From an uncultured Candidatus Rokubacteria bacterium (GTDB taxonomy: Bacteria > Methylomirabilota > Methylomirabilia > Rokubacteriales > DASRDR01), in NCBI GenBank assembly GCA_963826115.1, contig CAWGVS010000002.1, positions 160,001-224,000 of the forward strand: a DNA stretch of 64,000 bases, written 5' to 3'. The notes beneath the pieces were generated by a model. The model was given only the letters and a program-made list of their open reading frames with translations, was not told where the DNA came from and did no database searches. Position numbers and translations under genes: made by a program. How positions within the stretch are numbered: position 1 is the first letter of the stretch; the number at the start of each line of letters is the position of its first letter. This document shows, piece after piece, positions 31,001 through 47,026 of the stretch.

Positions 31001-32902
31001 CTAGCCCTGCGGCTTGTTCTTGATGTAGCCGGCGATGACCTCGTTCATCGTGGTGCGGGCGTGGCCGATCCCCTCCTCGCAGACGTCGAGATCGATGAAT
31101 CCGACCTGCTTCTCCCCCGCCACCTTCTCGATCGCCTCGCGGGTCATGTCGCGCATGAAGCCGGCCGGCACGCGGTTCAGACGGGCGACGGCGTCCTCGG
31201 TCCACGTGAAGGCGCCGTTCGGGTCGGTCACGTCCTTGAGGGTCGCCCCGGCGAACTTCGTGTTGGCAATGAGCGTGTCCCAGCCGTCGCCGAGCTTGTC
31301 GCGCCCGACCGTCTCCTCGATGAGCGGGAAGGCGACCTCCTTCGTGATGACGGGGAGCTTCCGCGTCCGCGCGTACTTCTCGATCCGCGCCTTCGCGCGC
31401 CGGCGGAGGTAGGCGTCGGTGACCTGGCGGAGCCCCTCCCGCGCGTCGTTGGCCCAGCGGACCGTCACGCCGGGCATGACCTCCTCCTCGGCGATCCCGC
31501 CCTCCAGGGTGGCGATCTGCTCCACCGCCTTCCGGTCGACGAGGGTGAACGCCTCCGGGCCGCCCGAGCAGACCGGGCACTTCACGACGGGGTTCGGGCC
31601 CTTCACGACGTACCCGCAGACCGAGCAGATCGCCGTCACGGCGGCGTCCTCGGCCCGGAGCTTCGCGACCGCCAGGTCCTCGGCGAGGATCTGCATCTTC
31701 TCGGCCATGCGGCCGGGCATGAAGATCGCCATCGCCTCGTCGATGACCTTCGAGGTGATGACGGTGTGCCCCTGCTCGATCGCGTAGCGGAGGAGCGCCG
31801 TGCGCGCCACCCCGGCCACCTGCTCGGGCACGCGCTTCATCCGGTCCCGGGCCTCGTCCGTCCAGGCGATGATCTCCTCGGCCTTGACGTCGAGCGGCGG
31901 GTAGAACTTGCCGCCCACCAGCAGCACGTTGCACGGGGCCAGGCGGAGCAGGTTCTCCGTGTTCGAGCCGAGGTCCGCCTCCCGCTCGTCCGAGTGGACG
32001 CCGATGCGTCCGAGGATCAGGAGCCAGGGCTGCTCCTTCCGGCAGAACTGGAGCACCTTCTCGAAGCACTTGCCGTCGAGCAGCGTGATCGCGAGGTCGA
32101 CCCCCTCATCGGCCGCGAGCTTCCGGCCGATCTCGAGGTGCGACTGGTAGATCTTCGCGAGCCCCGTGTCGATGATCTCCTCGTGGAGCTGCTCCTGCTC
32201 CTTGAAGCGGAACACCTTCGAGGCCTGCTCGGTGAGCACGCCGACGATCCCGTTGAACATGGCGTAGTGGAGGTACGGGTCGTACACCGCGACCGCGTGG
32301 ACCGGCCGGCGGAGGGCCTTCCCCAGCGCGATGCCGACCTTGAGCCCGTAGAAGGACTGCGGGCTCCCGTCGAGGCCGACGACGATCGCGCCCTGCTGTG
32401 CCTCCAGGGGCTCCAGGCTCCGGATCACCAGCGTGTCGGCCGTGACCTTCCGGATGAAGCGCTCGGTCACCGAGCCGAGCTGGCTGTCGCGCACCGCGCC
32501 CAGGCCCAGCGCGCCCATGATGACGAGGTCGTAGTCCTTGCCCTGCACGTCGTCGATCAGGGCCTTGTAGTGCTTGCCGTCCATCATCCGCGGCTCGAAG
32601 GGCAGCCCGGCGGCCTCGGTCTTCTTCCGCATGACCTCGAGGTAGGAATCGGACACGAGCTGGAGGCCCATGGCGATCAGCGAGTCGTGGATCTTTCGCT
32701 GGCGCTCGAGCTCGTGCTCGTCCCGGTACTCCTCGGGCAGCGTGTACTCCATCTGCTTGAAGCGGTAGTCGTGGAGCCGCGCCGCGTACACGTGGCAGCC
32801 GGTCAGGGTCGAGCCGAAGGCCCGCCCGAGCTCCACGGCGAGGTCGATCGCGCGGTTGGAGTAGTCCGAGTTGTCGACCGGAACGTAGATCTTGCCGAAC
32901 AT
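31001..32902 (-). CDS. Tandem universal stress protein domains + rubredoxin-like knuckle + three PCP_red domains
   Basis: IYVPVDNS..DLVIMGALG..LGSVTE; VVGLDGS..LGSNTENLL; CSVC..CPVC; WTDEARDRMKRVP, WANDAREGL, WTEDAVARLNRVPAGFMR. Confidence 0.85.
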   Translation of the reverse strand: MFGKIYVPVDNSDYSNRAIDLAVELGRAFGSTLTGCHVYAARLHDYRFKQMEYTLPEEYRDEHELERQRKIHDSLIAMGLQLVSDSYLEVMRKKTEAAGLPFEPRMMDGKHYKALIDDVQGKDYDLVIMGALGLGAVRDSQLGSVTERFIRKVTADTLVIRSLEPLEAQQGAIVVGLDGSPQSFYGLKVGIALGKALRRPVHAVAVYDPYLHYAMFNGIVGVLTEQASKVFRFKEQEQLHEEIIDTGLAKIYQSHLEIGRKLAADEGVDLAITLLDGKCFEKVLQFCRKEQPWLLILGRIGVHSDEREADLGSNTENLLRLAPCNVLLVGGKFYPPLDVKAEEIIAWTDEARDRMKRVPEQVAGVARTALLRYAIEQGHTVITSKVIDEAMAIFMPGRMAEKMQILAEDLAVAKLRAEDAAVTAICSVCGYVVKGPNPVVKCPVCSGGPEAFTLVDRKAVEQIATLEGGIAEEEVMPGVTVRWANDAREGLRQVTDAYLRRRAKARIEKYARTRKLPVITKEVAFPLIEETVGRDKLGDGWDTLIANTKFAGATLKDVTDPNGAFTWTEDAVARLNRVPAGFMRDMTREAIEKVAGEKQVGFIDLDVCEEGIGHARTTMNEVIAGYIKNKPQG

Positions 32903-32940
32903 GGAAGCCTCCTTGCGCAGCACGGGGGGCGGCGCCGGGG

Positions 32941-33705
32941 TCACTTGAGCTCGAACTCGACCGCGACCTCGCCCTTCGCCGGCACCGTCACCTCCTGGGT
33001 GAGGACGCGGGGGGGGTCGTAGAGGGGGCGGCCGTCCTTGTCCTTGCCCGTCGCCACCCAGCCTTCGTGCCAGGCGGTGACGCGGTAGCGTCCCGGCGGG
33101 ATCTCGTCGATGCGGAACTGTCCATTGTCGTCCGTGACCGCGAAGTAGGGGTTCTCGCGCACGACGATCCAGGCCCGCATGTGGGTATGCGCGTCGCAGA
33201 CGACCTCGATGACGCCGGGCTTCTTGATGCGCTGCGAGACGTCGACGGCCTGGTCCTTCGTGGGCAGCGCGATGTTGAACACCGTCAGGCGATCGAGGTA
33301 GCCGTGGGTGTTGTGGAGCACCGGATCGGTGTTCTTGATCCGCACCTTGGCCCCCGCCATCACCGCGGAGACGTGCGGCACGAAGAGGCACTTCGCGTTG
33401 TCCAGCTCGAAGTCCGGCGCGCGCTTGCCCCGCTCGACACCCTCGAGCGCCACCACCGTGCCGCGGACGCCGCCGGTCGCGCCCACCACCAGCGCCTCCG
33501 AGGGCTTGTGCTCGCCACAGACGTCCGTGTTCTTCCGCACGGCCAGGAGCTCCGCTTTCGGCGGCTCGCCCGCGAGCCCGACGCGCCCCACCAGGACGCC
33601 GCCGTCGGGCACCGGGGCCTCGACGTAGGGCGCCGCCGACCGGGCCACGCCCGCGAGCCCGAGGCCCAGCGCGAGGAGAAGCACGGCGAGACCACGAGCG
33701 CGCAT
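32941..33705 (-). CDS. Exported carboxypeptidase-regulatory-like/cupredoxin-like protein
   Basis: Signal peptide; C..F.PHV, LHNTH, CDAHTHM, FAVTDDNGQFRIDEIPPG. Confidence 0.75.
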   Translation of the reverse strand: MRARGLAVLLLALGLGLAGVARSAAPYVEAPVPDGGVLVGRVGLAGEPPKAELLAVRKNTDVCGEHKPSEALVVGATGGVRGTVVALEGVERGKRAPDFELDNAKCLFVPHVSAVMAGAKVRIKNTDPVLHNTHGYLDRLTVFNIALPTKDQAVDVSQRIKKPGVIEVVCDAHTHMRAWIVVRENPYFAVTDDNGQFRIDEIPPGRYRVTAWHEGWVATGKDKDGRPLYDPPRVLTQEVTVPAKGEVAVEFELK

Positions 33706-33717
33706 CCTAGCCCCGTC

Positions 33718-34110
33718 TCACGGCGCGCCCGCCGAGCCCGGCCCGGAGCGCCCGCCCTCGGTCGGATCCACCAGGTGATCGAGCGCCAGCCAGATGGCCT
33801 TGCTGTACCGAAACGACCAGAGCGGGAACAGCACCGCGAAGGCGCCCCAGATCGTCACCTGCCATCCCGGCGAGGGCGCGAGCCAGGCCTCCAGGAGGAA
33901 GTACCCGGCGAGGGCGAGGCCCACCGTCAGACCGTAGTTGATGTAGATCGCGCCAATGAAGTACCCCGCCTCGCGCTCGAACTGGAGCCCGCAGACCGGG
34001 CAGCGGGGCCGCATCCGGACCAGGCCGGTGAACAGCGACGCGCCGCCGCAGCGCGGGCAGCGCAGTCCGAGCCCCCGCCGGACCGCCAGGGCCAGTCGCG
34101 TGCGATCCAC
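33718..34110 (-). CDS. DUF983-like membrane protein
   Basis: CPRCG..CPVCG, EAGYFIGA, two TMs. Confidence 0.7.
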   Translation of the reverse strand: MDRTRLALAVRRGLGLRCPRCGGASLFTGLVRMRPRCPVCGLQFEREAGYFIGAIYINYGLTVGLALAGYFLLEAWLAPSPGWQVTIWGAFAVLFPLWSFRYSKAIWLALDHLVDPTEGGRSGPGSAGAP

Positions 34111-34132: not shown

Positions 34133-34546
34133 TCATCCATGGTAGAGCATCCAGTACACCACCACGCCGGTCACCGACACGTAGAGCCAGATCGGGAAGG
34201 TGACGCGGGCCAGGCGCGCGTGGCGCGTGAACTGCGCCCGGAGCGCGCGGTAGAGCGTCGTCCCGACGAGGGGGACGATCGCCACCGCCAGCACGGTGTG
34301 CGTGATCAGGATCACGAAGTAGACCGGCCGCAGCCACCCGCCGCCCGCGTACGGGCGCGAGCCCACCTGCGCGTGGTAGGTCAGGTACGAGACGAGGAAG
34401 AGGACCGAGAGGGCAACCGCGGTCAGCATGCAGGCCCGGTGGACGGCGACCCGCCCCTGCCGGATGGCCACGAAGCCGGCCACGAGCGCCACCGCCGCGG
34501 AGGCGTTCAGCACGGCGTTGACCGTGGGCAGGACCGCGAGGGTCAC
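34133..34546 (-). CDS. DUF420 (CtaM-like) oxidase assembly membrane protein
   Basis: NAVLN, HRACM, FLVSYLTYH, ILITH, IWLYVSVTGVVVY. Confidence 0.88.
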   Translation of the reverse strand: MTLAVLPTVNAVLNASAAVALVAGFVAIRQGRVAVHRACMLTAVALSVLFLVSYLTYHAQVGSRPYAGGGWLRPVYFVILITHTVLAVAIVPLVGTTLYRALRAQFTRHARLARVTFPIWLYVSVTGVVVYWMLYHG

Positions 34547-34577: not shown

Positions 34578-34904
34578 TCAATGCTTGGGTGCCTCGAGCT
34601 TCTTCTCGGCGGCGGTCTGGCGCGGCGGGTTCAGCGAGTCCGGCAGCAGCACCAGCACCAGGAGCGTGCCGATCAGGACGGGCGTCAGGGCAATGTAGCC
34701 GAGCGTCTTCGTCTCGAGCTTGAGGTGCATGAAGTAGAGGGCGACCATCGCCGCCTTCGCCGAGGCGAGCGAGACCAGCAGGATGGCGATCACGGTATGG
34801 GGAAGGGGCATGAAGATGACCCCGATCTCGACCACCGTGAGCACCGCCAGGTACCAGAAGATGGCCATGTAGCTCGGGCCGTGCTTCGCATGGGAGTCCG
34901 CCAT
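34578..34904 (-). CDS. Cytochrome c oxidase subunit IV
   Basis: LAVLTVVE, KAAMVALYFMHLK. Confidence 0.85.
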   Translation of the reverse strand: MADSHAKHGPSYMAIFWYLAVLTVVEIGVIFMPLPHTVIAILLVSLASAKAAMVALYFMHLKLETKTLGYIALTPVLIGTLLVLVLLPDSLNPPRQTAAEKKLEAPKH

Positions 34905-34926
34905 CGCGCGCCTCCGCCTCGTCCGG

Positions 34927-35550
34927 CTACAGGAGGTAGATGAAGGTGAACACCATGATCCAGACCAGGTCGACGAAGTGCCAGTACAGCCCGGCCACCT
35001 CCGCGACCATGTAGTTGTAGCGCATGTCCTTCACGCGGCTGATAACCCGCCAGATCACCAGGAGGTAGATCACGCCCGCCGTCACGTGGAGCCCGTGGAA
35101 GCCGGTGATGATGAAGAAGCTGGCCCCGAACAGGGTGGCGCCCCACGGGTTCCCGAAGACCATGAGCCCGCGCTCGATCAGGTGCGTCCACTCGAAGACC
35201 TGGAGTCCGACGAAGATCGCGCCGCCGGCCGCGGTCAGCAGCACGAACTTCTTCGCGCGGGCCAGGTCGGACGCCTGGAGGGCCTCGAGGGCCTTCACCA
35301 TCGTGACGCTCGAGCAGATCAGGAGGAACGTCATGAGCGCGGTGAGCTGGATGCCGAGTACCTGGGCCGGGTTTGGCCAGTCGACGCTCCCCGCCCGCAT
35401 CGCGCCGTAGGACGCCAGGAGTACGCCGAAGCCCACGGCGTCTCCCGCCAGGAAGACCCACATCCCGAGCTTGCCCCAGCTCTCCGGCGTCAGGGGCGAC
35501 TCGGCCGGCTCGACGGCCGGATGGTGCAGGGCAGTTGCCGCGTCGCTCAC
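34927..35550 (-). CDS. Cytochrome c oxidase subunit III (copy B)
   Basis: KLGMWVFL, LICSSVT, TGFHGLHV, GLYWHFVDLVW. Confidence 0.9.
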   Translation of the reverse strand: MSDAATALHHPAVEPAESPLTPESWGKLGMWVFLAGDAVGFGVLLASYGAMRAGSVDWPNPAQVLGIQLTALMTFLLICSSVTMVKALEALQASDLARAKKFVLLTAAGGAIFVGLQVFEWTHLIERGLMVFGNPWGATLFGASFFIITGFHGLHVTAGVIYLLVIWRVISRVKDMRYNYMVAEVAGLYWHFVDLVWIMVFTFIYLL

Positions 35551-35572
35551 GATCCGCTCTCCTTCCGTGCGG

Positions 35573-36268
35573 TCATGCGAGGTAGACGAGCACGTACAAG
35601 ACCGGCCAGAGGGCCACCACGAAGTGCCAGTAGATCGCGCAGCAGTCGAGCGCCGCGTACCGCTCCGCGGTGAACCGGCCGCGCCGCGCGAGCCAGAGCA
35701 TCGCGCCCAGCCAGGCCGCCGCGCCGAACACGTGGGCCGCATGCACGCCGATCAGCGTGTAGAACGTGGCTCCGTAGACTCCCGACGACACCCGCAGTCC
35801 GAAATGGACGAGCCGTGTCCACTCGACCCCCTGGACCACCAGGAACAGCGCGCCGAGCCCCCAGGTCCAGGCGAGCCCGCGCACGAGCCCGGCCCGGTCG
35901 CCCGCCCGGACGGCGCGGAGCGCCCGCACGAGGGTCCAGCTCGACGCGAGCAGGACGAGCGTGTTCACCGCGGTGAGGCCGATGGGGAGCCGCGGCTGGC
36001 CGGGCGGCGGCCAGACCGCCGCCCCCAGCCGCAGCTGGAGGAAGGCGAGCACCAGGCCCCCGAAGAACATGCTCTCCCCGGCGAGGAGCATCCCCATCGC
36101 GAGGCGGGCGTTCGAGAGCGGCGGCCCGTCGGGCCCCGGGGCCCGCTCGCCCTCCCCGTTCCCCTCGTGGGGTCCCGGCGGGCCCGGGATCCGGCCGCCC
36201 CGATCGGGGACGCGGTCCCGCTGGATCTCCGCGGGGCGCACCTCGAGGTCGAGCACGGGCGTGGCCAC
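35573..36268 (-). CDS. Cytochrome c oxidase subunit III (copy A)
   Basis: ESMFFGGL, NTLVLLASS, GVHAAHV, YWHFVVALW. Confidence 0.88.
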   Translation of the reverse strand: MATPVLDLEVRPAEIQRDRVPDRGGRIPGPPGPHEGNGEGERAPGPDGPPLSNARLAMGMLLAGESMFFGGLVLAFLQLRLGAAVWPPPGQPRLPIGLTAVNTLVLLASSWTLVRALRAVRAGDRAGLVRGLAWTWGLGALFLVVQGVEWTRLVHFGLRVSSGVYGATFYTLIGVHAAHVFGAAAWLGAMLWLARRGRFTAERYAALDCCAIYWHFVVALWPVLYVLVYLA

Positions 36269-36270
36269 GC

Positions 36271-36432
36271 TCAGTTCCGCAGCCAGGCCACGGCGGCCGA
36301 GACGAGCATGAGCACGACGATCCACGCCACGAGCCCCCACGCGGTTCGGCGGTTTCGGGTCGCCAGCGAGCTCGGGAGCGCCGGGCGCGGCTCGACGGGT
36401 GACGCGGGAACCACGGACGCGCGCGGGGGCAT
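36271..36432 (-). CDS. Small single-TM protein within the oxidase operon
   Basis: 53 aa; NRRT followed by a hydrophobic helix; fills the gap between ctaB and subunit III. Confidence 0.55.
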   Translation of the reverse strand: MPPRASVVPASPVEPRPALPSSLATRNRRTAWGLVAWIVVLMLVSAAVAWLRN

Positions 36433-36436
36433 CGGG

Positions 36437-37348
36437 CTAGCCCACCTTGTCCAGCGCCATGAGGGCAAGGAGGAGCGGCAGGTACACGACCGAGGCGATG
36501 ACGACCCGCCGCGCGGCGGACTCGGAGGGCCGGAGGGCCTGCGCCGCGCCGGTGGCCAGGAAGAGCGCGCCGAGGAGCAGGGCGCCGAAGAAGTACACGC
36601 CGCCCGTCAGCCCCACCAGGGTCGGCAGGAGCGCCACCGCGTGGAGCGCGAGGCAACCCGTCACGATCTGGCGCTCGGTGCTCCCGCCGTCCGGGTCCAC
36701 CACGGGCAGGACCCGGATCCCCGCGCGCGCGTAGTCGTCGCGGTACAGGCGGGCGATGGCCAGCGTGTGCGGGAGCTGCCAGAGGAACAGGATCGCGAAG
36801 AGCACGCCGGCGCCGATCCCCAGCTCGCCGCGCGCTGCGACCCATCCCGCCACCGGCGGCAAGGCGCCCGGCACCGCGCCGAGCACGGTGCAGAGCGGGC
36901 TCACCTGCTTGAGCGGCGTGTAGACGCCGAGGTAGAGCGCCGACGTCACCGCGGTGACCGCGGTCACCCCGGGACCGACCGCCACGAGGAGGTACAGGAG
37001 GCCGCCGAACGTCGCCAGGACGCCGAAGGCCGCGGCCTCGCCCGGCTGGAGCCGCCCGTCGGGCAACGGCCGCCCGCGGGTACGGAGCATCCGCGCGTCC
37101 ACCTCGCGCTCGAGGAACTGGTTGAGCGCGAGGGTCCCCCCGGCGGCCAGGGCGGTCCCCACGAGGACGTGGAGCACCTGCAGGTAGTCGAGGTCTCGGG
37201 ACGCGCCGAGGTAGTACCCGACGAGCGTGGTCAGCACGACCATCAGGACGACGCGGGGCTTGGCGAGCGACAGGAAGTCCGCGAGGCGGCGCCGGGTGCC
37301 CGCGAGCGCCACCGCGCTCTCGCGCACGACCGCGGTCCGGGACGTCAT
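36437..37348 (-). CDS. ctaB: Heme o synthase
   Basis: LAKPRV, NQFLEREVDARMLRTRGRPL, YTPLK, WQLPH, DYARAG. Confidence 0.93.
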   Translation of the reverse strand: MTSRTAVVRESAVALAGTRRRLADFLSLAKPRVVLMVVLTTLVGYYLGASRDLDYLQVLHVLVGTALAAGGTLALNQFLEREVDARMLRTRGRPLPDGRLQPGEAAAFGVLATFGGLLYLLVAVGPGVTAVTAVTSALYLGVYTPLKQVSPLCTVLGAVPGALPPVAGWVAARGELGIGAGVLFAILFLWQLPHTLAIARLYRDDYARAGIRVLPVVDPDGGSTERQIVTGCLALHAVALLPTLVGLTGGVYFFGALLLGALFLATGAAQALRPSESAARRVVIASVVYLPLLLALMALDKVG

Positions 37349-38265
37349 GCCAGCGCCTCCGTCCGGACCGGCGCGGCCCGGCGCTGCGCGCGGGTCTCGG
37401 CGCCGAGCGCGCGCCGCCGGCCGAGCTGGAGCGCGAGGGCCACCGCGCTCCCCAGGATCAGTGCGCCCACGACCCGGTGGAGCACCGGGAGGGCGACCAC
37501 GGAGAGCTGCCCCCCCGGCACCCAGAGGCTCGTGAAGCGGACCGTGTAGGCGCCGAGCCCGAGGAGGACCTGGACCAGGAGGAGCACCTTCACGGCGCGC
37601 GCCCACCAGGCGAGGACCGGGTCCTCCCCGGCGGCCCGAAGGACCGCGAGGGCCACGCCGACCAGGACGGCGAGCGTCACGACCGCCCCGGCGACGTGCC
37701 ACCAGACCGCCGGGCCGTGCGTCGTGAAGGCGCCGAGGACGACCTGGCCGTAGACGACGACCACCGCGAACCGGCCGAGCACGGCCAGCCGGTCGATCCG
37801 CTCCGGCGCGGCGGACAGCGCCTGCCAGCCGCGGCCCGTCACCACCGCGATCCCGACCAGGAGCCCGAAGAACACCTGGGCGAGACAGCCGTGGACGACG
37901 GCCAGCGCATCCTGCAGGAGCACGACACGGAGTCCCCCGATCAGCCCCTGGATCCCCACCAGGACGACAGCCAGGGCGCCCAGGCCCCGTACCCAGCGGC
38001 GCGCCTCACCGAGCCACAGGGCCACCGCCAAGAGGGCGGTGAGGAGCCCGATCGTGGCCCCGAGGAGGCGATGGCCGTGCTCGACCAGGACGCCCCCCAC
38101 CATCCCCGACCACGGGAACAGGAAGAGGTTGTGCCCGAAGGTGGTGGGCCAGTCGGGCACCGCCAGCGCCGCGCCCGTGTTGGTGACGAGCCCGCCGGCC
38201 ACGATCAGGCCGGCGGTCGCGCCCGCCGTCACGCACGCCAGGCGATGCGGCCACCCGACAGCCAC
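37345..38265 (-). CDS. ctaA: Heme a synthase (COX15/CtaA)
   Basis: GGLVT, PDWP, EHGHR, QGLIGGLRV, VHG, LHRVVG. Confidence 0.88.
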   Translation of the reverse strand: MAVGWPHRLACVTAGATAGLIVAGGLVTNTGAALAVPDWPTTFGHNLFLFPWSGMVGGVLVEHGHRLLGATIGLLTALLAVALWLGEARRWVRGLGALAVVLVGIQGLIGGLRVVLLQDALAVVHGCLAQVFFGLLVGIAVVTGRGWQALSAAPERIDRLAVLGRFAVVVVYGQVVLGAFTTHGPAVWWHVAGAVVTLAVLVGVALAVLRAAGEDPVLAWWARAVKVLLLVQVLLGLGAYTVRFTSLWVPGGQLSVVALPVLHRVVGALILGSAVALALQLGRRRALGAETRAQRRAAPVRTEALA

Positions 38266-38297
38266 CCGCGTCCCCTCCCGCGTCCCGCCCGGACCCG

Positions 38298-40046
38298 TCA
38301 GTGCCCGTGTCCGCCCGATCGGGCGCCGGCCACCACCTGGGTCTGCGGCAGGAAATCCTCGGTCATGCCCGGCACGCTGTACTCGTAGGGGCCCCGGTAG
38401 ACGGTCGGGATCGCGGCCTCCCAGTTACCGTGCGGGGGCGGCGAGGCTGCCTGCCACTCGAGCGTGTTCGAGTGCCAGGGGTTCCGCTCCGCCTTCTTCC
38501 CGCCGACGAGGCTCGAGATGAAGTTCCAGAGGAACAGGATCTGGGACACCCCGAGGATGAAGGCGCACACGGACATGAACACGGCGATGGGCTGGAGGTG
38601 CTGGAGGAACTCGTACTGCGTCGGGTTGTAGATCCGACGCATCATCCCGCCCACGCCCAGGAAGTGCATCGGGAAGAAGACGAGGTTGAAGAACACGAAC
38701 GTCAGGATGGCGTGGAGCTTCCCGAGCGACTCGTTCATCTCCCGCCCGAAGAGCTTCGGGAACCAGAACGTGATGGCCGCGAACATCGCGAAGATGATCC
38801 CCGCCACCACGTAGTGGAAGTGCGCCACGATGAAGTAGGTGTCGTGGATGAAGATGTCGACCGGCGTGATGGCCATGAAGATCCCGGAGAGACCGCCGAT
38901 CGTGAACGTCGACAGGAACGAGATCGCGTGGATCATCGGCGTCGTGAAGCGGATCGAGCCGCCCCACAGCGTCCCGAGCCAGTTGAACGACTTGATCGCG
39001 GACGGCACCGCGATGACCATCGTCGTCAGCATGAACGAGGTGCCGAGCGCGGGGCTCATGCCGCTGATGAACATGTGGTGGCCGTAGACGATCCACGACA
39101 GGAACGCGATCGAGATCATCGAGTACGCCATCGCCCGGTACCCGAAGATCGGCTTGCGCGAGAAGGTCGACAGCACGTCCGAGGTCACGCCCATCGCCGG
39201 AAGGACGAGGATGTAGACCTCCGGGTGCCCGAAGAACCAGAAGAGGTGCTGCCAGAGCAGCACCTCGCCGCCCCCCGACGGGTCGAACCAGTGGGTCCCG
39301 ATCGTCCGGTCGAAGAGGAGCATGGCGCACGCGGACGTGAGCACGGGCAGCGCCAGCAGGAGCAGGATCGCCGTGATGAAGAGGGACCAGATCACGAGCG
39401 GCATCCGGAACAGCGTCATGCCGGGCGCCCGCATGTTGACGACCGTCGTGATGTAGTTGATCGAGCCCATCATCGACGAGACCCCGAGCACGAAGAGGCT
39501 GATCAACCAGAGGTTCTGGCCCCAGTTCACCCCGGTGAACTGGGGGTTGGCGGACAGGGGGGCGTAGGCGGTCCAGCCCGCCGCCGCATGGCCGCCGGGA
39601 ACGAAGAACCCGGCCAGCATGATCACGCCCGACACCGCGCCCGTCCAGAACGAGAGCATGTTCAGCTTGGGGAAGGCCATGTCGCGCGCGCCGAGCATCA
39701 GCGGGATCAGGAAGTTCCCGAAACACCCCACCATGATCGGCATGACCACGAAGAAGATCATCAGGGTGGCGTGCATCGTGAACAGCATGTTGTAGACCTC
39801 GGGCGGGATCACGCCCTCGGTCTCGCGGAACAGCCAGCCCATGCCCGGCACCGGCGTCTCCGGCCAGCCGAGCTGCCACCGGATCAGCATGGCCAGGAAG
39901 CCGCCGATCATCAGCATGAAGAGGCCCATGAACAGGAACTGCCGACCGATCATCTTGTGGTCGGTCGAGAAGATGTACGTGCGCACGAACCCGAGGTCGT
40001 GGTGCTCGTGGACGTCGTGCGCCGCTGCCTTCGCGCTCTGAGCCAT
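38298..40046 (-). CDS. ctaD: Cytochrome c oxidase subunit I, A1 type
   Basis: DHKMIG, TMHA, GWTAY, WFFGHPEVY, HHMF, HDTYFIVAHFHY, MMRR. Confidence 0.96.
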   Translation of the reverse strand: MAQSAKAAAHDVHEHHDLGFVRTYIFSTDHKMIGRQFLFMGLFMLMIGGFLAMLIRWQLGWPETPVPGMGWLFRETEGVIPPEVYNMLFTMHATLMIFFVVMPIMVGCFGNFLIPLMLGARDMAFPKLNMLSFWTGAVSGVIMLAGFFVPGGHAAAGWTAYAPLSANPQFTGVNWGQNLWLISLFVLGVSSMMGSINYITTVVNMRAPGMTLFRMPLVIWSLFITAILLLLALPVLTSACAMLLFDRTIGTHWFDPSGGGEVLLWQHLFWFFGHPEVYILVLPAMGVTSDVLSTFSRKPIFGYRAMAYSMISIAFLSWIVYGHHMFISGMSPALGTSFMLTTMVIAVPSAIKSFNWLGTLWGGSIRFTTPMIHAISFLSTFTIGGLSGIFMAITPVDIFIHDTYFIVAHFHYVVAGIIFAMFAAITFWFPKLFGREMNESLGKLHAILTFVFFNLVFFPMHFLGVGGMMRRIYNPTQYEFLQHLQPIAVFMSVCAFILGVSQILFLWNFISSLVGGKKAERNPWHSNTLEWQAASPPPHGNWEAAIPTVYRGPYEYSVPGMTEDFLPQTQVVAGARSGGHGH

Positions 40047-40095
40047 CGTTGTTCCTATCCTCCCTTGCGAGAGACCTCAGTCCGGCGGGTCCGGC

Positions 40096-40752
40096 CTAGG
40101 AAGGCCACTTCTCCTTGAGCCACTTCCCGTAGTCCTCGGGCGTGTGGACGAAGAGGTAACCCTTCATCCCCGAGTGGCCGAACCCGCACAGCTCGGCGCA
40201 CGGGATCTCGTACTTCCCCGGTTTGGTCACCTCGATCCACTGGAGGATCTCGCGGCCGGGCACCGCGTCCTGCTTGAACCGCGCCGTGGGGATGAACACG
40301 CTGTGGATGACGTCCCGCGACCGAAGGTGCAGCACGACCGGTTTGTTGATCGGCACGTGCACCTCGTTGTCGAACGTCTGGTCGTCGGCGGTGTCGAACT
40401 TCCCGTCCGGCCCCGGGTACGCGACCTCCCAGTTGAACTGCTTCGCGGTGATGCGCACGTGGAGGTCCGACTCGGGAACGTGGCTCTTGATCTTCGACCA
40501 GGTCGGGATGGCGAGGAACGTCAGCACCACCAGGATCAGGGAGGGGACGATCGTCCACACCATCTCGAGCGTGGTGTTGCCGTGGCTGTAGACGGCCCGC
40601 CGTCCGGGCCGTTGGCGGTACACGACCAGGAACCACGCCAGCAACACCGTCACGAGCACGAACGCGGCGCCGGTGATGTAGTAGATGAGATAGAAGAGGT
40701 CGTCGAGCTCCTTGCCGTACGTCGCGATGTTCTCGGGGAGCCAGCTCATCAT
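40096..40752 (-). CDS. ctaC: Cytochrome c oxidase subunit II with CuA site
   Basis: LEMVWTIVP, QFNW, DVIHS, CAELCGFGHSGM; no fused cytochrome c. Confidence 0.94.
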   Translation of the reverse strand: MMSWLPENIATYGKELDDLFYLIYYITGAAFVLVTVLLAWFLVVYRQRPGRRAVYSHGNTTLEMVWTIVPSLILVVLTFLAIPTWSKIKSHVPESDLHVRITAKQFNWEVAYPGPDGKFDTADDQTFDNEVHVPINKPVVLHLRSRDVIHSVFIPTARFKQDAVPGREILQWIEVTKPGKYEIPCAELCGFGHSGMKGYLFVHTPEDYGKWLKEKWPS

Positions 40753-40827
40753 CGCAGTCGGCCCGTCCTTTTCGATCGAAGGGGGGTCACGGTCTCGTTC
40801 CGCACCGGGGCCGACGCCCCGGCGTCC

Positions 40828-40871
40828 GGCGCGCGCTCCCGGCGGCCCATCCGGCCCCGGGAGCGCACGCC
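40828..40871 (-). terminator. Intercistronic stem-loop
   Basis: 15-bp stem on the mRNA strand (one G-U pair), 11 nt after the stop at 40882. Confidence 0.45.
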
Positions 40872-40881
40872 TGCCGGAGTC

Positions 40882-41580
40882 CTACTTTTTCAACTCGAAG
40901 GCGACCTTCGTGTCCTGCCCGGCCTTGACCTCGACTTCCTTGGTCTGCTTGCCGAGCACCGGGTGGATCACCTCCACCTTGTGCTTCCCGGGCGGCACGT
41001 TCTCCAGCTTGAAGGCGCCGTTGGCGTCGGTGACGGCCGTCGGACTCTCGGTCACGAAGATCCAGCCGTGCATCCAGCTGTGGGCGTCACACTGGACCTT
41101 CACGAGCTCGGGCTTGTCCAGCTTCTCCACCATCTCCTTCTTGAATTTCGGCTGCGCCTTGTTGATCGGCGGGTTGGCCGTCGAGAAGGTGTGGATGTTG
41201 TGGAGGACGCCGTCCGAATTGAGGATCTTGACCTCGCCCGGCGCCATCACGAGGACCTCGGGGTGGAACTCGCACCCCTTCTGGTCGAGGACCGCCGGCT
41301 TGGAGGGCTTGGCGCCCTTGGCGCTGGGGACCGACACCAGCGTGTCGGCCAGGCCGCCCCCGGCGCCCACCGCGACCTCGGCGATCTTCTTCTCCTGGCC
41401 GCAGACCTCGTTGTCCTTGTTGACCTTGATCACCTTGGGCGCGGGCGCGGCACCGGCGAACTTCACCTCGCCGCTGATGGACCCACCGCCCTGGGCGCCC
41501 GCCGGCCAGCCGGCCACCAGGACGACTCCCGCCGCGGTTGCCACGACGGCCAGCATGCTCACCACGATCGACTGCTTCAT
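40882..41580 (-). CDS. Exported carboxypeptidase-regulatory-like/cupredoxin-like protein (paralog of 32941..33705)
   Basis: AGGAGG RBS; signal peptide; LHNIH, CDAHSWM, AVTDANGAFKLENVPPG. Confidence 0.78.
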   Translation of the reverse strand: MKQSIVVSMLAVVATAAGVVLVAGWPAGAQGGGSISGEVKFAGAAPAPKVIKVNKDNEVCGQEKKIAEVAVGAGGGLADTLVSVPSAKGAKPSKPAVLDQKGCEFHPEVLVMAPGEVKILNSDGVLHNIHTFSTANPPINKAQPKFKKEMVEKLDKPELVKVQCDAHSWMHGWIFVTESPTAVTDANGAFKLENVPPGKHKVEVIHPVLGKQTKEVEVKAGQDTKVAFELKK

Positions 41581-41597
41581 CGAAACCTTCCTCCTTG

Positions 41598-43883
41598 TCA
41601 TCGAGTCTCGCGCGACGCGGCGTCTTGCCGCCCGCGGGCCCACCGGGCGAGCCCGAGGCCGGCGGCGCCCGACGCCAGCGCCAGGATCGGCGGTACGACG
41701 AACTGCCGCTTCGAGGGCGGCGGCTCGAGCCGCGCATAGTACCAGGTGGAGACGGCGGCCTTCGGGCCGTCGTCCCCCTCCGAGCCGTCCCATGCCCAGA
41801 AGGCCACCGGGAAGAACTCCCCGGGGCGGAAGACGAAGTCCTGCGAGTCCGAGGTCTTGAGCGGCCGCCGGATCACCGCCCGGTACTGGCCGGCGTCGTA
41901 GACGACCTGTCCCTTGGCTTGCACGGCTTCCCCCGCCTGGGGCGTCATCTTCCCCGCTCCCGTTGCCGTGGCCTCGCCCACGTCCCCGCCCGCGCGCCAC
42001 GTCAGCAAGTAGACGGGATGGCTGCCGTCTCCCATCAGGAAGTACGGGCGGTCCCCCGTCCCCTGCCCGGTCGGGAACTGGATGGCGACCATGTCCGGCT
42101 TCGGCGCCCCCTTGGTCGGATCGGACGCCGTCGGGTCGTCCCAGGTCAGGTGAAACACCGCCTCGCGCTCAGTGTACACCGCCCGCACCGTGACGATGTC
42201 GACGGTGGGGTTGAAGTTTCGCGGGTCGACGATGACCTGGCCGACCATGGGGATCGGCCCGCCCGGGCGGCGGGTCCAGAACTCGGCGTTCGGGTCGCTC
42301 GGCACCTCGCCCGCGACCGGTAGAATCGTCAGCAGCGCCGCCAAGTTGAGGCGCTCCGGCCCCAGGGACCGCACGTAGTTCGCGAGGTCCCAGAGGCTCG
42401 CGTCCTTGACGTCGGCGTCCTTCTCGTCCGACTTTCGGTAGTCCTCGACCGAGTCGGCGATGGCCGGCATCGGCGTCCCGGCGACGCCGGTCAGGAGCCG
42501 CATGACCACGTCCTTCCGCTCCGAGCCCCCCCGGAAGTTCCACGGGCTGTGGAGGTTGGCAGGCCGGATCGGGTGGCCCCAGTCGTCCTTCAAGTCGGAT
42601 CCCGGCGCGGGATCCCCGCGACCCGCCTGGCCGTGGCACTTGACGCACTCGAAGGCGTCGAACATCTTCTTGCCCCGGCGCAGCGACGCCTCCGACGAGG
42701 CAACCTCCTTGGGCACGGCGACGGCCTCGAGCTTCGCCCCCTTGTAGCCGTCCGCGAAGGTCTTGATGTAGGCCACGACCGCCGAGCGCTCCTTCTCGGG
42801 GAGCGACCGCCAGGCGGGCATCGACGTCCCGGGCATGCCGTCGGTCACGATCCGGAGCAGATCCTGGTCCGAGGCCAGGGGGCCCCCCACGCTGCGGATC
42901 TTGTACTTCCCGGCGGTGAAGTCGCGCGGCCGCGGGACGAGCAGCTCGGCCGCGGGCCCGTCGCCCTTGCCGGTCGCGCCGTGGCAGCCCACGCAGCGCT
43001 TCTCGTAGACCTGCTTGCCGAGTGCGACGTCGCCCGACTGGGCGGCCGCGGACCGCGGCGCGAGAAGCTCGGCGCCGCCGGCGAGGAGGCCCGTCGTCGG
43101 CCCCGGCTCGACCGGCCGGGCCGCGTGCGACTCCATCACCCGCGGCGGATGGCCCGTCGTCTCGTAGAGGTAGTAGATCACCTGCCAGATCTGCTCGTCG
43201 GTCAGCCGGTCTTCCCAGGCCGGCATCGCCGAGTTCCAGGGCGTCGACTCCTTCGGCAGGCCCGGGCCGCCCTTCGCGATGCGCCAGAACACGTAGCCCT
43301 CGGAGAGCTGGGCGATCGTGTTCGGGCCGGCGAAGTCCGCCGGCTGCGGGTTGAAGCCGTGGGCGAAGTGCCCCCGGCCGTCCAGCAGGTCGCCATGGCA
43401 GTACATGCAGTTCCGGATGTAGGTCGCGGCGCCCGCCGCGAGGTGCTTCTCGCGGTTCCCGGGGTTCGCCTTGATGTCCTTCCGGATCGGCGTGTCGGCG
43501 TGCTGGAGGTTGATCTCCTTCCCCCGGAAGCTGATGGAGTCGGGGGGCGCCGGGTGGACCGCGCGGAGCTCGAGCGGCGCCTCGGCGCGGGCCGCCGCCT
43601 GCGAATACGCGTAGTAGCCGATCAGGAGGGGGATCACCACGCCGAGGACGAGCCGCAGTGGCCGCCGGCGGGGCTCGGTGAGCATCGCCCAGATCGGCGC
43701 CACGAAGGCGCGCCACGAGTCGGAGTCCGACGAGACGTACACCAGGACGGCCATGACCGTGATGGCCATGTACATCGAGAACACGCTGAACGGCATGGGC
43801 GGCCGGATCCCGTACCGGAACAGGAGGGCGGCCGCGACCACGACCAGGGCGGCCTGGAGGAACTTCCCGCGCGGGGTCGGCAT
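41598..43883 (-). CDS. Membrane-anchored triheme cytochrome c fused to an EbdC-like heme b domain
   Basis: CMYCH, CVGCH, CVKCH with distal Met motifs (SAMP, TSMP, TPMP); C-domain LTWDD, PVAFWAWDG, KAAVSTW; N- and C-terminal TMs. Confidence 0.85.
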   Translation of the reverse strand: MPTPRGKFLQAALVVVAAALLFRYGIRPPMPFSVFSMYMAITVMAVLVYVSSDSDSWRAFVAPIWAMLTEPRRRPLRLVLGVVIPLLIGYYAYSQAAARAEAPLELRAVHPAPPDSISFRGKEINLQHADTPIRKDIKANPGNREKHLAAGAATYIRNCMYCHGDLLDGRGHFAHGFNPQPADFAGPNTIAQLSEGYVFWRIAKGGPGLPKESTPWNSAMPAWEDRLTDEQIWQVIYYLYETTGHPPRVMESHAARPVEPGPTTGLLAGGAELLAPRSAAAQSGDVALGKQVYEKRCVGCHGATGKGDGPAAELLVPRPRDFTAGKYKIRSVGGPLASDQDLLRIVTDGMPGTSMPAWRSLPEKERSAVVAYIKTFADGYKGAKLEAVAVPKEVASSEASLRRGKKMFDAFECVKCHGQAGRGDPAPGSDLKDDWGHPIRPANLHSPWNFRGGSERKDVVMRLLTGVAGTPMPAIADSVEDYRKSDEKDADVKDASLWDLANYVRSLGPERLNLAALLTILPVAGEVPSDPNAEFWTRRPGGPIPMVGQVIVDPRNFNPTVDIVTVRAVYTEREAVFHLTWDDPTASDPTKGAPKPDMVAIQFPTGQGTGDRPYFLMGDGSHPVYLLTWRAGGDVGEATATGAGKMTPQAGEAVQAKGQVVYDAGQYRAVIRRPLKTSDSQDFVFRPGEFFPVAFWAWDGSEGDDGPKAAVSTWYYARLEPPPSKRQFVVPPILALASGAAGLGLARWARGRQDAASRETR

Positions 43884-43887
43884 GGGG

Positions 43888-44724
43888 TTAGGGCTTGGCC
43901 TTGGCGGCGGGCTGGCCGGCGGCGGGAGCCGCGCCGCCCTTGAGCGTCAAGAGGAACGCGACGAGATCGAGGTACTCCCGGGCCGCGAGCTGCTGCCCGA
44001 AGGTCTTCGGCATGACGTTCGGCGGGAACCCGGAGACCGTGCCCTTCGAGGCGGGGTCCAGGATCTTGCCCATGATGTACTCCGGCGTCTGGCTGCCGGC
44101 GATGTTCGAGAGGTCCGGCCCGACCGGGCTCGCCCCGATCGCCCCCGCCTTGTGGCAGGCGATGCACGCGCCCTTGCCCATGAACACCGCCTGGCCCGCC
44201 TTCGGATCGCCCGGCAGCTCGATCGAGGCGGCGGCGCCGGCGGCGGCCGCCGCGATCTGCGGCACGTCGTCGAGCTTGACGTCCACGCTGCCGCCCTGGC
44301 TCTCCAGGAAGGCCACCACGGCCCAGAGCTCGCTCCGGTTCAGGCCGATCGGCGGCTTCGACACGTTCGGCATGATGTTGGGGAAGCCCTCGACCACGTA
44401 GGCGGACGGGGTCAGCAGGGACTCGACCAGGTACGCGGCCGCCCGGGTCCCGGGCTTCCGGGTCGCCGCGCGCCCGCCCACGCCCGCGAGGTCGGGCCCG
44501 CGCCCGGCCCGGCCGATGCCGTGGCAGGTCGTGCACTGGCCCTTCTCGCGGAAGATCCGCTCGCCGGCGGCCACGAGCTGCTCAGGGGTCACGCTGCCGC
44601 CCTCGAGCGAGAGCTCCTCGGGAGGCTTCGACTCGATCTGGGGGATCGAGTTCGCGTACCAGGTGTAGCTGCCCATCACCGCCAGGGCGAACGCGCCCAC
44701 CTTGACCGTCACGGGCAGCGCCAT
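43888..44724 (-). CDS. Membrane-anchored diheme cytochrome c
   Basis: CTTCH..NIMP; CIACH..NVMP. Confidence 0.9.
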   Translation of the reverse strand: MALPVTVKVGAFALAVMGSYTWYANSIPQIESKPPEELSLEGGSVTPEQLVAAGERIFREKGQCTTCHGIGRAGRGPDLAGVGGRAATRKPGTRAAAYLVESLLTPSAYVVEGFPNIMPNVSKPPIGLNRSELWAVVAFLESQGGSVDVKLDDVPQIAAAAAGAAASIELPGDPKAGQAVFMGKGACIACHKAGAIGASPVGPDLSNIAGSQTPEYIMGKILDPASKGTVSGFPPNVMPKTFGQQLAAREYLDLVAFLLTLKGGAAPAAGQPAAKAKP

Positions 44725-44732
44725 GGCGCGGG

Positions 44733-46559
44733 CTACGCCTCCGGGCTCCCGCCGGCGATGGGGGCGGGCGCCGGATGTCCGCCGGGCGCCTTGGCGTCCG
44801 TGAGGGGCCCCTTCTCTCCGAGACCGCCGAGCCAGAAGATGAACATCACCATCAGGAAGAACAGGATGGTGGTGATGGTGATGATGTTCGCCGCGTAGCC
44901 GAGGGCCGGTGTGAGCGCGTCGGGCGACCGGTCCTGCATCACGCCATAGACGTGCCAGTGCTGCCGGATCCCCGACCGCGCGAAGCCCATGAGACCCATC
45001 AGCCAGGTGAAGGTCACGGCCAGCAGGATCAGCACGTACTGGGAGCGCGGCGCGATCGTGCCCCAGCGGATGGTCCCGGTGGATCGGGCCCCCTTGAACA
45101 TCGGGATGTCGATCGCCATCACGATGACGATGCAGAGCAGGACCGACCCCACCTGCAACGGCGAGAAGCGCCGGATCCGGACAATGGCCTCGACGAAGTA
45201 CCCGCCGAGGCCCAGGCCGATCACCGCGGCGCCCGCGAGGGCGAACGTCAGGTACTGGAGCATCATCCCGAAGCGGGCCCACGACACGGTCGGCTCGCGG
45301 TTCGCCCGCCGATACAGGAGGTACGAGAAGAAGGTCGTCAGGATCATGAGGTTCACCGCGGTGTTCTTCGCGGTCATGACCCCGAAGAACCGCAGGAACC
45401 GGTGGTCCGACCCGCCCATGGCGCGGACCTCGCCGAGCGACGCGATGAGGCTTCGCGGGGTGGCCCACACCATGAACCCGAGCGCGATGATCAGGAGGAG
45501 GTACTTGATCCAGGGTCGGAAGCGCTCGGCCCCGGGGATGCGCTCCATCCCGAGCCAGAGGTAGTAGTTCGAGCCCAGGAAGAGCACGCCGATGAGGATG
45601 GCCTGGACGATCCAGAGCCACGACATGAAGCCGCCCATCATCGTGATGCCCATCGTCTGGTTGTAGCCGTAGATCTCGAAGCCGAGCCAGTACCCGGCGA
45701 ACGGGAGCACCATCAGCGCCGAGAGCGCCACGAAGTTCCCGATGTACCCCATCCAGTCGTAGCGCGCCCGCTCCTCGTCCGTCTTGGCGCCCAGGAACCG
45801 GAACGCGGCGTACCCGGCGACGATGGTCCCCCCGAACACGAGGTTGGCGATGAGGCGGTGGATGTTGACCGGCATCCAGGTGAAGTTGTTCACGGCTTGC
45901 CAGAGGGTGCCCGTGAACTTCCCGCTCTCGTCCACGCCGGCCGGCGAGATCATGAAGGTGACCCACGAGTTCGAGACGAACAGGATGGCCGTGCCGAGGA
46001 GGTTCGACAGCACCCCGATCGCCACGTGGAGCCCCTTCCGCGGCCCCGACAGCCAGTGCCAGCCGTAGTACCAGAGGTACACGGTGAACGTCTCGGCGAA
46101 GAACAGGCCCGCGTAGAGCCACATCGTGGGCGCGAAGATGCCGCTCATGAACGTCCAGAACCGCGGGTACAGCGTGATCAGGAGGAACAGGAGCAGGCCG
46201 CCCAGGAGCGCCGTGGTCGAGAACGCCGCGAACGTGAGCTTGACGAACTCGTGGGAGAGCCAGTCGTACCGGCGCCCCTCCTCGCGGTCCATCCCGATCC
46301 GCCAGCCCATGAACTCGATGATCACGGCGAAGATCGGAACGCCCAGGATGAACGCCGCGAAGTTGAGGTGGATCTGCGCGATCACCCAGATGGCAAGCCG
46401 CGAGCCGATGAAGGGGAAGGCCCGGTAGGCGGCGTCCTTCTGCTCCTGGGCCCAGCCGGGCGTCGCCAGGAGCGCGACCGCGGCGGCGGCCAGGACCAGC
46501 GGAAGGACGCGCGCGAGCCGCGACGGTGCGGGCTCGCTCGGGGTCACGGGCGGCCGCAC
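44733..46559 (-). CDS. Cytochrome bd subunit I-like (CydA-like) protein, non-canonical
   Basis: AQIHLNFAAF, FFAET, LH, NIHRLIAN, RSGIRQHWHVYG (GRQPW-like); many TMs; no cydB nearby. Confidence 0.82.
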   Translation of the reverse strand: MRPPVTPSEPAPSRLARVLPLVLAAAAVALLATPGWAQEQKDAAYRAFPFIGSRLAIWVIAQIHLNFAAFILGVPIFAVIIEFMGWRIGMDREEGRRYDWLSHEFVKLTFAAFSTTALLGGLLLFLLITLYPRFWTFMSGIFAPTMWLYAGLFFAETFTVYLWYYGWHWLSGPRKGLHVAIGVLSNLLGTAILFVSNSWVTFMISPAGVDESGKFTGTLWQAVNNFTWMPVNIHRLIANLVFGGTIVAGYAAFRFLGAKTDEERARYDWMGYIGNFVALSALMVLPFAGYWLGFEIYGYNQTMGITMMGGFMSWLWIVQAILIGVLFLGSNYYLWLGMERIPGAERFRPWIKYLLLIIALGFMVWATPRSLIASLGEVRAMGGSDHRFLRFFGVMTAKNTAVNLMILTTFFSYLLYRRANREPTVSWARFGMMLQYLTFALAGAAVIGLGLGGYFVEAIVRIRRFSPLQVGSVLLCIVIVMAIDIPMFKGARSTGTIRWGTIAPRSQYVLILLAVTFTWLMGLMGFARSGIRQHWHVYGVMQDRSPDALTPALGYAANIITITTILFFLMVMFIFWLGGLGEKGPLTDAKAPGGHPAPAPIAGGSPEA

Positions 46560-46686: not shown

Positions 46687-47026
46687 GGGCGAGTCGGGCC
46701 GTTTCGCCCGCGCGGCGGCGCGCGCGCGGGACGCCGTGGGCGCGACGCGCACCGCGCATCCGCGGCGTGCCGTCGGCGCGGGGACGCGCGCGCCCCGACA
46801 CGGGTCCCGGCGGCCGAGGAGCGCGCGCGGCACTGCGGGCGGGGCGCGCGCCGCGTGGTCGAGCGATGCGTGAGGAGCGCGATGTCGTCCCGCGCGACCA
46901 CGGCGCGCGGCGCCGGGCCGCGATTGCCCGACGCGGCGCCGCTGTGCTACCGTGAATGGTGCATTTCGCTCGTCTCGTGATGAGCGTCACCCCCGACCGA
47001 CCGGTCATCCTGAGCGGAGGAACTCC

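Follow-up and report, generated by a model that had tools for sequence, protein, structure and literature searches.

We analyzed a 64,000-nucleotide stretch of DNA (the window) from an uncultured Candidatus Rokubacteria bacterium, which corresponds to G000:C2:160001-224000 (72% G+C) of a genome (G000) that is 99% complete. An operon on the minus strand, reading from position 46559 to 34578, opens with the gene of a CydA-like membrane protein (the bd-like protein) and runs through those of a dihaem cytochrome c (c2), a fused haem c/haem b protein (c3EB) and a cupredoxin (cupr) into the genes of an aa3 cytochrome oxidase. We propose, tentatively and as something short of probable, that the module formed by the first four gene products is a second oxygen reductase, fed by cytochrome c and cupredoxin, which would share its periplasmic electron wire with the aa3 enzyme. 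The bd-like family is known, not new; what is new is its place in an aa3 operon, in a genome without nitrite oxidoreductase (NXR), together with a conserved cassette of putative haem-tailoring genes. An earlier note on this DNA had offered two readings of the CydA-like protein, a quinone:cytochrome c oxidoreductase standing in for complex III and a second terminal enzyme fed by cytochrome c, and both had already been proposed for the family in passages of PMC3578206, PMC6606698, bioRxiv 10.1101/2021.11.15.468770 and PMC10839748.

The bd-like protein is a non-canonical member of the bd superfamily that lacks a CydB partner, and it is not a canonical quinol oxidase. Its match to Pfam Cyt_bd_oxida_I (PF01654; 1.1e-13, 51 bits, cut-off 26.2) covered only positions 2-240 of the 418 in the profile, the N-terminal half, and a search of solved structures with its single sequence returned nothing at E <= 1. 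A profile built from 53 family members matched four CydA structures, from 5doq_A (2.6e-17) to 6rko_A (1.5e-6) and including 9r2g_A and 7ose_A, and comparison with CydA by hhalign gave 96.3-96.9%. The AlphaFold2 (AF2) model of the protein had a predicted local distance difference test score (pLDDT) of 90.7 and a predicted template modelling score of 0.89, and its top 10 Foldseek matches were CydA chains without exception. When the model was aligned to CydA chains with VIA-align, Z scores of 31.6-35.3 were obtained; the alignment to 7ose_A (Z 35.3, root-mean-square deviation 3.5 over 353 residues) spanned residues 45-588 of the model and 3-504 of the chain, and the whole nine-helix CydA core is therefore present.

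Residues were mapped in two steps, by aligning the canonical CydA of the same genome with E. coli bd-II and then by profile-profile alignment. The residues that the earlier note had read by eye were upheld: His19, Glu107 and His186 are kept as H64, E156 and H234, and the positions of Glu99 and Glu445 are occupied by Tyr149 and Gly530. His126 is likewise kept, as H178, and H64, the equivalent of the haem ligand His19, was nearly invariant in the family alignment. At the C-terminal end, '...SGI-RQHWHV' aligned with '...AELGRQPW', so that GRQPW reads IRQHW, with the Arg, Gln and Trp kept (Arg448 and Trp451 equivalents); this part of the alignment is weak by itself (32% probability), and it is colinear with the rest and consistent with the structural span. 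No confident equivalent of Met393, the second ligand of haem b558, was obtained; a low-confidence part of the alignment sets G471 at its position.

The protein has an N-terminal signal-like helix and 13 transmembrane helices, 14 in total, and contains no CxxCH motif. Between helices 6 and 12 the model shows five helices (312-487), a stretch that in canonical enzymes is occupied by the Q-loop and a single helix. The Q-loop with its quinol-binding residues is absent: hhalign found no conserved counterpart, and transmembrane helices occupy its place in the model. The canonical CydAB enzymes of E. coli, Geobacillus and Mycobacterium share with the bd-like protein the nine-helix core and the equivalents of His19, Glu107, His126, His186, Arg448 and Trp451, whereas the bd-like protein differs from them in having no CydB, no Q-loop, no Glu99 or Glu445 equivalent, four to five extra helices and a predicted input of electrons from cytochrome c. 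The bd-like gene is present in a single copy in the genome, with no second cydA-like gene of its kind nearby or elsewhere, and the only cydB (PF02322) of the genome adjoins a canonical cydA on another contig. The window itself contains no cydB, no cytochrome b (bc1) gene and no gene of alternative complex III (ACIII), as the earlier note had stated; ACIII and the canonical cydAB pair are encoded elsewhere in the genome.

By its features rather than by a tree, the protein fits the OR-N family, and within it probably OR-N2, which bears out the non-canonical, OR-N-type assignment of the earlier note. Passages of bioRxiv 10.1101/2021.01.16.426971 characterise OR-N (OR-N2) proteins by the lack of a quinol site and of CxxCH, by about 14 transmembrane helices and by a second cydA-like gene that may be absent, and the features of the bd-like protein agree with the description of OR-N1 and OR-N2 given there. 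With the OR-N family (Murali, Gennis and Hemp 2021; NIDE0901-like 'bd-like oxidases') the protein shares the CydA fold, His19, the missing quinol site and haem c motif, the 14 helices, an operon with cytochromes c and the lack of a second cydA-like gene; unlike the OR-N proteins of nitrifiers, it is found here in a Rokubacteria-type heterotroph. Its nearest clusters in the ESM Atlas were mostly from Nitrospirota, and its features match those of the Nitrospina 'bd-like oxidase' as described in passages of PMC3578206. Extra bd-like paralogues, 44-56% identical and in frames of ~500-770 aa, occur in some Methylomirabilota genomes (e.g. G080:C50, G113:C21, G076:C12), and these may be other OR-N subfamilies.

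The region that replaces the Q-loop is predicted to dock a cytochrome c subunit. In a complex prediction, the bd-like protein with residues 1-250 of c3EB scored 0.75, compared with 0.00 for the best of 3 controls; the 0.75 mark was reached by 58/80 solved complexes and by 2/110 mismatched pairs in a benchmark that is approximate, our own alignments having been used. The runs agreed in at least 48% of contacts, with a partner pLDDT of at least 75. The predicted interface pairs c3EB residues 26-57 with bd-like residues 321-389, which lie in the family-specific helices, and it includes the family-invariant bd-like residues Y332, W335, T367, P368 and E377. This model supports binding of the N-terminal part of c3EB by the bd-like protein. 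Direct electron exchange between the bd-like protein and c2 is argued by a different observation, since natural fusions of bd-like proteins to CxxCH domains exist, in 3/23 aligned family members (P0001, P0003 and P0015).

The partner c3EB has three N-terminal transmembrane helices, three haem c motifs (CMYCH, CVGCH and CVKCH), an EB_dh domain and a C-terminal transmembrane helix. It matched TIGR03477, the haem b/gamma subunit of type II dimethyl sulfoxide (DMSO) reductases, at 4.3e-34, below the cut-off, and its C-terminal domain is homologous to Kuenenia NxrC (7b04_C; 3.6e-8). A Met and a Lys of c3EB align with NxrC, and we take these to be probable haem ligands. A Gemmatimonadota locus (L079 12553-15102) carries c3EB as two adjacent genes, for a 269-aa membrane monohaem cytochrome c and a 579-aa dihaem c/EB_dh protein, and c3EB of the window is a fusion of this two-gene form. 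After the third transmembrane helix of c3EB, an 'R..HPAPP' motif (R107, H110, P111, A112, P113 and P114; within 43134-43883) was invariant in 9/9 aligned sequences, and its histidine could be a haem ligand.

The fourth protein of the module, cupr, has a cupredoxin fold, although Pfam recognises only its C-terminal CarboxypepD_reg domain. His107, Cys144, His147 and Met150 were invariant in 13/13 aligned sequences, including the paralogue at 32941-33705 (cupr2), and the AF2 model (pLDDT 89.8) matched NirK cupredoxin domains, amicyanin, plastocyanin and pseudoazurin in Foldseek. Elsewhere in the same genome, ~8 kb from a gene for a c2-like cytochrome c, there is a third paralogue of the cupredoxin, which shares 64% identity with cupr over 160 residues (G000:C6:798483-798962 and C6:789924-790232).

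The oxidase part of the operon is, by its gene content, an A-type (aa3) haem-copper cytochrome c oxidase, comprising COX1, COX2 with a CuA motif, COX3 and COX4 together with the haem o and haem a synthases; we assign it to the aa3 type because ctaA and ctaB are both present.

We assessed the conservation of this arrangement in the 80 closest of at least 582 genomic stretches with relatives of the module, which are nearest relatives rather than a sample of the whole family, and counted as assessable those loci with enough downstream DNA. The bd-like gene was followed by c2 in 72/72 assessable loci and, in the downstream order, by c3EB in 64/64, a cupredoxin gene in 56/61, coxB in 51/57 and coxA in 47/53, so that the linkage to aa3 genes expected from the window is conserved. 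It is kept in Rokubacteria and in Gemmatimonadota, whose bd-like proteins are 57-61% identical to that of the window. When the three unpublished genomes among these (G015/L042, G026/L071 and G031/L082, of which L082 also entered alignments A2-A4) were omitted, the counts were 69/69 for c2, 61/61 for c3EB, 53/58 for cupredoxin, 48/54 for coxB and 44/50 for coxA. In the phylum as sampled, a bd-like match (E <= 1e-30) was found in 91/151 genomes and in 67/98 of the high-quality ones, and the former tally became 87/147 without the unpublished G151, G079, G097 and G108, all of which had matched; no conclusion hinges on unpublished genomes. Loci L090 and L051 were left out of the alignments, there being a stop codon in their references. 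Two variants of the arrangement were seen: in a Myxococcota locus (L086 3415-15507) two complete bd-like modules point away from each other, and a Thermodesulfobacteriota locus (L078 7971-8699) has a second bd-like gene directly after the cupredoxin gene.

Downstream of coxD, the gene run continues with DUF420, DUF983, cupr2, a protein joining Usp, a rubredoxin-like domain and three PCP_red domains, a radical S-adenosylmethionine (radical-SAM)/SPASM/PCP_red enzyme, a small membrane protein, a protein with three PCP_red domains and an Mrp/NUBPL-like ATPase. Among the NCBIfam families, the radical-SAM enzyme came nearest to AhbD (7.1e-89) and NirJ2 (5.4e-87), without reaching the cut-off of either. 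In 22 other loci, a radical-SAM gene is found immediately upstream of the bd-like gene; these loci include Gemmatimonadota, NC10 and one Rokubacteria locus (L051), and 21 of them are within the 74 that have at least 1.5 kb of upstream DNA. The gene of the Usp and PCP_red protein, too, stands immediately before the bd-like gene in loci of Gemmatimonadota and NC10. Because of this position of the radical-SAM gene elsewhere, the cassette appears to belong to the bd-like module rather than to the aa3 oxidase, and this AhbD/NirJ-like radical-SAM and PCP_red cassette probably supplies or tailors the haem of the module. In a limited literature search we found no description of a bd-like module with aa3 in Rokubacteria or Gemmatimonadota, and no link of a 'bd-like oxidase' with radical SAM, AhbD or NirJ.

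On these findings, the oxygen reductase that we favour would work as follows. The bd-like protein, c2, c3EB and the cupredoxin would form one membrane complex, in which a transmembrane helix from the cytochrome c subunit docks on the extra helices found in place of the Q-loop. Because predicted c-subunit docking helices replace the Q-loop, electrons would enter from the periplasmic haem c, haem b and copper centres and not from quinol. The periplasmic carriers would be reduced by the ACIII of the genome, and the wire would have two ends. One would be the CuA site of the aa3 oxidase, which is presumably co-transcribed with the module, and the other the bd-like protein, which would reduce O2 at its His19-ligated haem with protons arriving through a kept Glu107-type path. 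The radical-SAM/PCP_red cassette would supply or tailor the haem of the module.

We favour this proposal because a predicted cytochrome docking surface replaces the quinol site, because cytochrome c fusions exist and ACIII is available upstream, because the equivalents of His19, Glu107 and His126 are kept, and because the presence of a dedicated haem enzyme points to a cofactor with a catalytic role. The proposed second terminal enzyme fed by cytochrome c agrees with the evidence and with the default view of the field, which, in passages of PMC10839748 and bioRxiv 10.1101/2021.01.16.426971, is that OR-N enzymes probably use cytochrome c.

Several points weigh against an oxygen reductase of this kind. 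To our knowledge, no OR-N enzyme has ever been assayed. The lost equivalents of Glu99 and Glu445 are central to the O2-reducing di-haem site of canonical enzymes. The genome has five other oxidase loci, the canonical cydAB pair and four haem-copper loci (four COX1 matches above the cut-off), so that a further oxidase alongside aa3 looks redundant. The aa3 linkage is missing in 6/53 assessable loci, namely L053, L069 and L070 (NC10/Methylomirabilis), L074, L086 (Myxococcota) and L094, and the link between the module and aa3, including the 'hybrid supercomplex' of the earlier note, is suggested by synteny alone. Finally, passages of PMC3578206 and PMC6606698 describe the same gene set in strictly anaerobic anammox bacteria, and this occurrence would be better explained by a quinone-linked role.

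Such a role is the basis of the next explanation, that the module is an analogue of complex III with a newly evolved quinol site, in which electrons would pass from the b haems of the bd-like protein through c2, c3EB and the cupredoxin to CuA of aa3, and in reverse in nitrite oxidisers and anammox bacteria. The gene order follows this electron path, coxB encodes no fused cytochrome c domain, and the operon layout resembles ACIII-oxidase and bc-aa3 arrangements. The loss of the O2-site Glu99 and Glu445 equivalents would also fit, and after CydA the next structural matches of the model were the quinol-binding proteins ActF/ActC and PsrC (Z 23.6 to 15.6), although canonical CydA may well match them likewise. 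This role was proposed for the family by Luecker et al. 2013 and Mundinger et al. 2019 (passages of PMC3578206 and PMC6606698). However, neither the Q-loop nor its residues are present, c3EB is predicted to dock in this region, and b haems that simply transfer electrons would not be expected to need a haem-tailoring cassette.

The distribution of complex III also argues against this explanation. The whole genome had no match to either Pfam cytochrome b family, but it encodes one ACIII, with ActD beside an NrfD-type ActC, outside the window. ActD/ACIII was found in 48/50 module-bearing genomes (45/47 without the three unpublished ones) and in 12/12 high-quality relatives free of the module, and the two carriers that lacked ActD, which also lacked cytochrome b, are fragmented assemblies. 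Since ACIII is present in carriers and module-free relatives alike, the anti-correlation with bc1/ACIII that the earlier note had predicted fails. Moreover, ACIII is universal in the group, and the module therefore does not take the place of complex III; nothing has been replaced, and the idea of a stand-in for a missing complex III is not supported. In all, we regard a complex III analogue as unlikely, though deserving of serious attention. Like operons of ACIII and caa3 oxidase, the present operon places a multi-haem, membrane-anchored module directly upstream of an A-type oxidase; unlike ACIII, the module has no NrfD, FeS or molybdopterin-like subunits, any quinol site in it would be putative, and ACIII itself is encoded elsewhere in the genome.

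In two carriers, ActD is split into two or three frame-shifted pieces (G010:C1:279519-280014 and G013:C30:131396-131886), one with an in-frame TGA; the cause is probably faulty assembly and not loss of the gene. Outside the window, at G000:C2:12790-14764, a Rieske gene adjoins a molybdopterin-like fragment and a gene for an NrfD-type membrane protein, and similar NrfD genes occur in G003 and G017.

A more far-reaching version of the quinone-linked role appears to us decidedly unlikely. In it, the module would be a third, hitherto unrecognised type of quinone-linked cytochrome c oxidoreductase that uses a haem tailored by the radical-SAM enzyme; in Rokubacteria and Gemmatimonadota it would be bound to aa3 in an obligate supercomplex, and in nitrite oxidisers and anammox bacteria it would run in reverse beside NXR.

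A further explanation is that the module serves as the entry point for a periplasmic substrate-oxidising enzyme, with the NxrC-type haem b taking electrons from a soluble dehydrogenase, in the way that NxrC takes them from NxrAB, and delivering them to aa3, and with the bd-like protein acting mainly as a haem-bearing anchor. The homology of the C-terminal domain of c3EB to NxrC and to type II DMSO-reductase gamma subunits speaks for such a role, as does the position of the gene set next to NXR in nitrite oxidisers, described in passages of PMC3578206 and PMC6606698. Yet the 99% complete genome contains no type II DMSO-reductase alpha subunit or NXR-type enzyme (TIGR03479; best score 123 bits against a cut-off of 984.75), no conserved candidate partner enzyme lies beside the module in the 80 closest loci, and the kept His19, Glu107 and His126 equivalents suggest more than an anchor; we consider this explanation improbable. 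Least convincing, and in our estimate highly improbable, is a reductase that draws on the same periplasmic wire but acts on another oxidant (for example nitric oxide, peroxide or an oxyanion by-product). Active-site residues unlike those of canonical bd oxidases speak for it, as does a dedicated enzyme for haem tailoring that is related to NirJ2, an enzyme of haem d1. Against it, no linked nitrogen-oxide or oxyanion genes were seen in the window or the 80 closest loci, and the tight linkage is to an O2 reductase.

The gene set can be compared with that of Nitrospina, Nitrospira and Kuenenia (Luecker 2013; Mundinger 2019), which consists of a bd-like protein, an alternative NxrC, cytochromes c, two cupredoxins and a zinc-finger protein and which is called TO_1 in Ca. 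Manganitrophus (Yu et al. 2021 preprint). With the TO_1-like set, whose parts are taken from passages of PMC3578206, the window shares a 14-helix bd-like protein with helices for the Q-loop, a dihaem cytochrome c, two cupredoxins and a zinc-ribbon protein. The monohaem membrane cytochrome c and the NxrC-like haem b protein with two CxxCH motifs of the TO_1-like set correspond to one fused open reading frame here and to two genes in L079. Unlike the TO_1-like set, the module of the window does not lie beside NXR, in a genome with no NXR-type enzyme, but inside an aa3 operon, and its conserved neighbourhood includes the radical-SAM/PCP_red cassette.

The role of 'bd-like oxidases' has been in question since they were first noticed in Nitrospira, Nitrospina and anammox bacteria, and in major nitrifiers they have been taken for the terminal oxidase. 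The present locus separates the module from nitrite oxidation, as NXR is absent and the module is joined to a textbook aa3 oxidase and is widespread in a soil phylum; this narrows the possible roles and suggests that the module is a general respiratory device. It also offers three concrete points, a predicted cytochrome c docking site in place of the Q-loop, a putative shared wire to aa3, and an AhbD/NirJ-like enzyme that may indicate an unusual cofactor.

Every gene named in the earlier note lies where that note had placed it, and Pfam matches and motifs confirmed its list of a CydA-like gene followed by a diheme c, a triheme c/heme b, a cupredoxin, coxBA, ctaAB, two coxC and coxD (Table 1).

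Table 1. Features of the operon and of the same-strand genes beyond it, in positions of the window.
Feature	Position	Strand	Basis
bd-like (OR-N type) CydA-fold membrane haem protein, 608 aa	44733..46559	-	Pfam Cyt_bd_oxida_I, hhalign, AF2, Foldseek
c2, membrane-anchored dihaem cytochrome c, 278 aa, CTTCH and CIACH	43888..44724	-	Pfam, two cytochrome c domains
c3EB, 761 aa, haem c and NxrC-type haem b (EB_dh)	41598..43883	-	Pfam EB_dh 2.8e-15
cupr, type-1 copper cupredoxin with C-terminal CarboxypepD_reg-like beta-sandwich	40882..41601	-	copper ligands, AF2, Foldseek
coxB, subunit II, CuA motif, no fused cytochrome c, no CxxCH	40096..40752	-	Pfam COX2 and COX2_TM
coxA, haem-copper oxidase subunit I	38298..40046	-	Pfam COX1 2.4e-150
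ctaA, haem a synthase family	37345..38265	-	Pfam COX15-CtaA
ctaB, haem o synthase (UbiA family)	36437..37348	-	Pfam UbiA 1.6e-50
coxC1, COX3 family, start codon uncertain	35573..36340	-	Pfam COX3 8.5e-27
coxC2, COX3 family; likely start GTG at 35550 behind GGAAGGAGAG	34927..35550	-	Pfam COX3 7.8e-17
coxD, subunit IV	34578..34904	-	Pfam COX4_pro 1.7e-11
DUF420	34133-34546	-	Pfam
DUF983 zinc-ribbon membrane protein	33718-34110	-	Pfam
cupr2, cupredoxin paralogue	32941..33705	-	37% identity to cupr in alignment A3, copper ligands kept
Usp, rubredoxin-like and 3x PCP_red protein	31001..32938	-	Pfam
radical-SAM/SPASM enzyme with PCP_red tail	29464..30840	-	Pfam, NCBIfam
p141, small protein with 2-3 transmembrane helices	29031-29456	-	
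3x PCP_red protein	~28018-29028	-	
Mrp/NUBPL-like P-loop NTPase	within 27134-28672	-	Pfam ParA match, residues 251-506 of frame

Codon-position G+C indicated one uninterrupted run of minus-strand genes, with operon-like spacing: the bd-like gene is separated from c2 by 8 bp and c2 from c3EB by 4 bp, c3EB overlaps the cupredoxin gene, and 129 bp separate the latter from coxB. Beyond coxD the same-strand run reaches ~27134, where the frames of the 3x PCP_red protein and of the Mrp/NUBPL-like NTPase overlap, which may reflect a real overlap, a wrong start or an assembly frameshift. A scan for promoters and terminators was uninformative: the only two promoter-like sites are on the plus strand, and the terminator-like sites numbered 6, compared with 4.1 expected; none of these sites lies inside the 129-bp gap before coxB. 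Eight RNA-library runs contained small shares (0.05-0.09) of the stretch. In the four of these that were aligned, contigs of 92-571 bases, mostly 90-95% alike, fell on all genes, and some spanned the bd-like/c2 and coxB/coxA junctions; these contigs are weak evidence, from which neither a single transcript nor expression by this organism can be read. We saw no gene for a regulator adjoining the operon, and a thioredoxin gene (46952-47356, plus strand) lies divergent from its upstream region.

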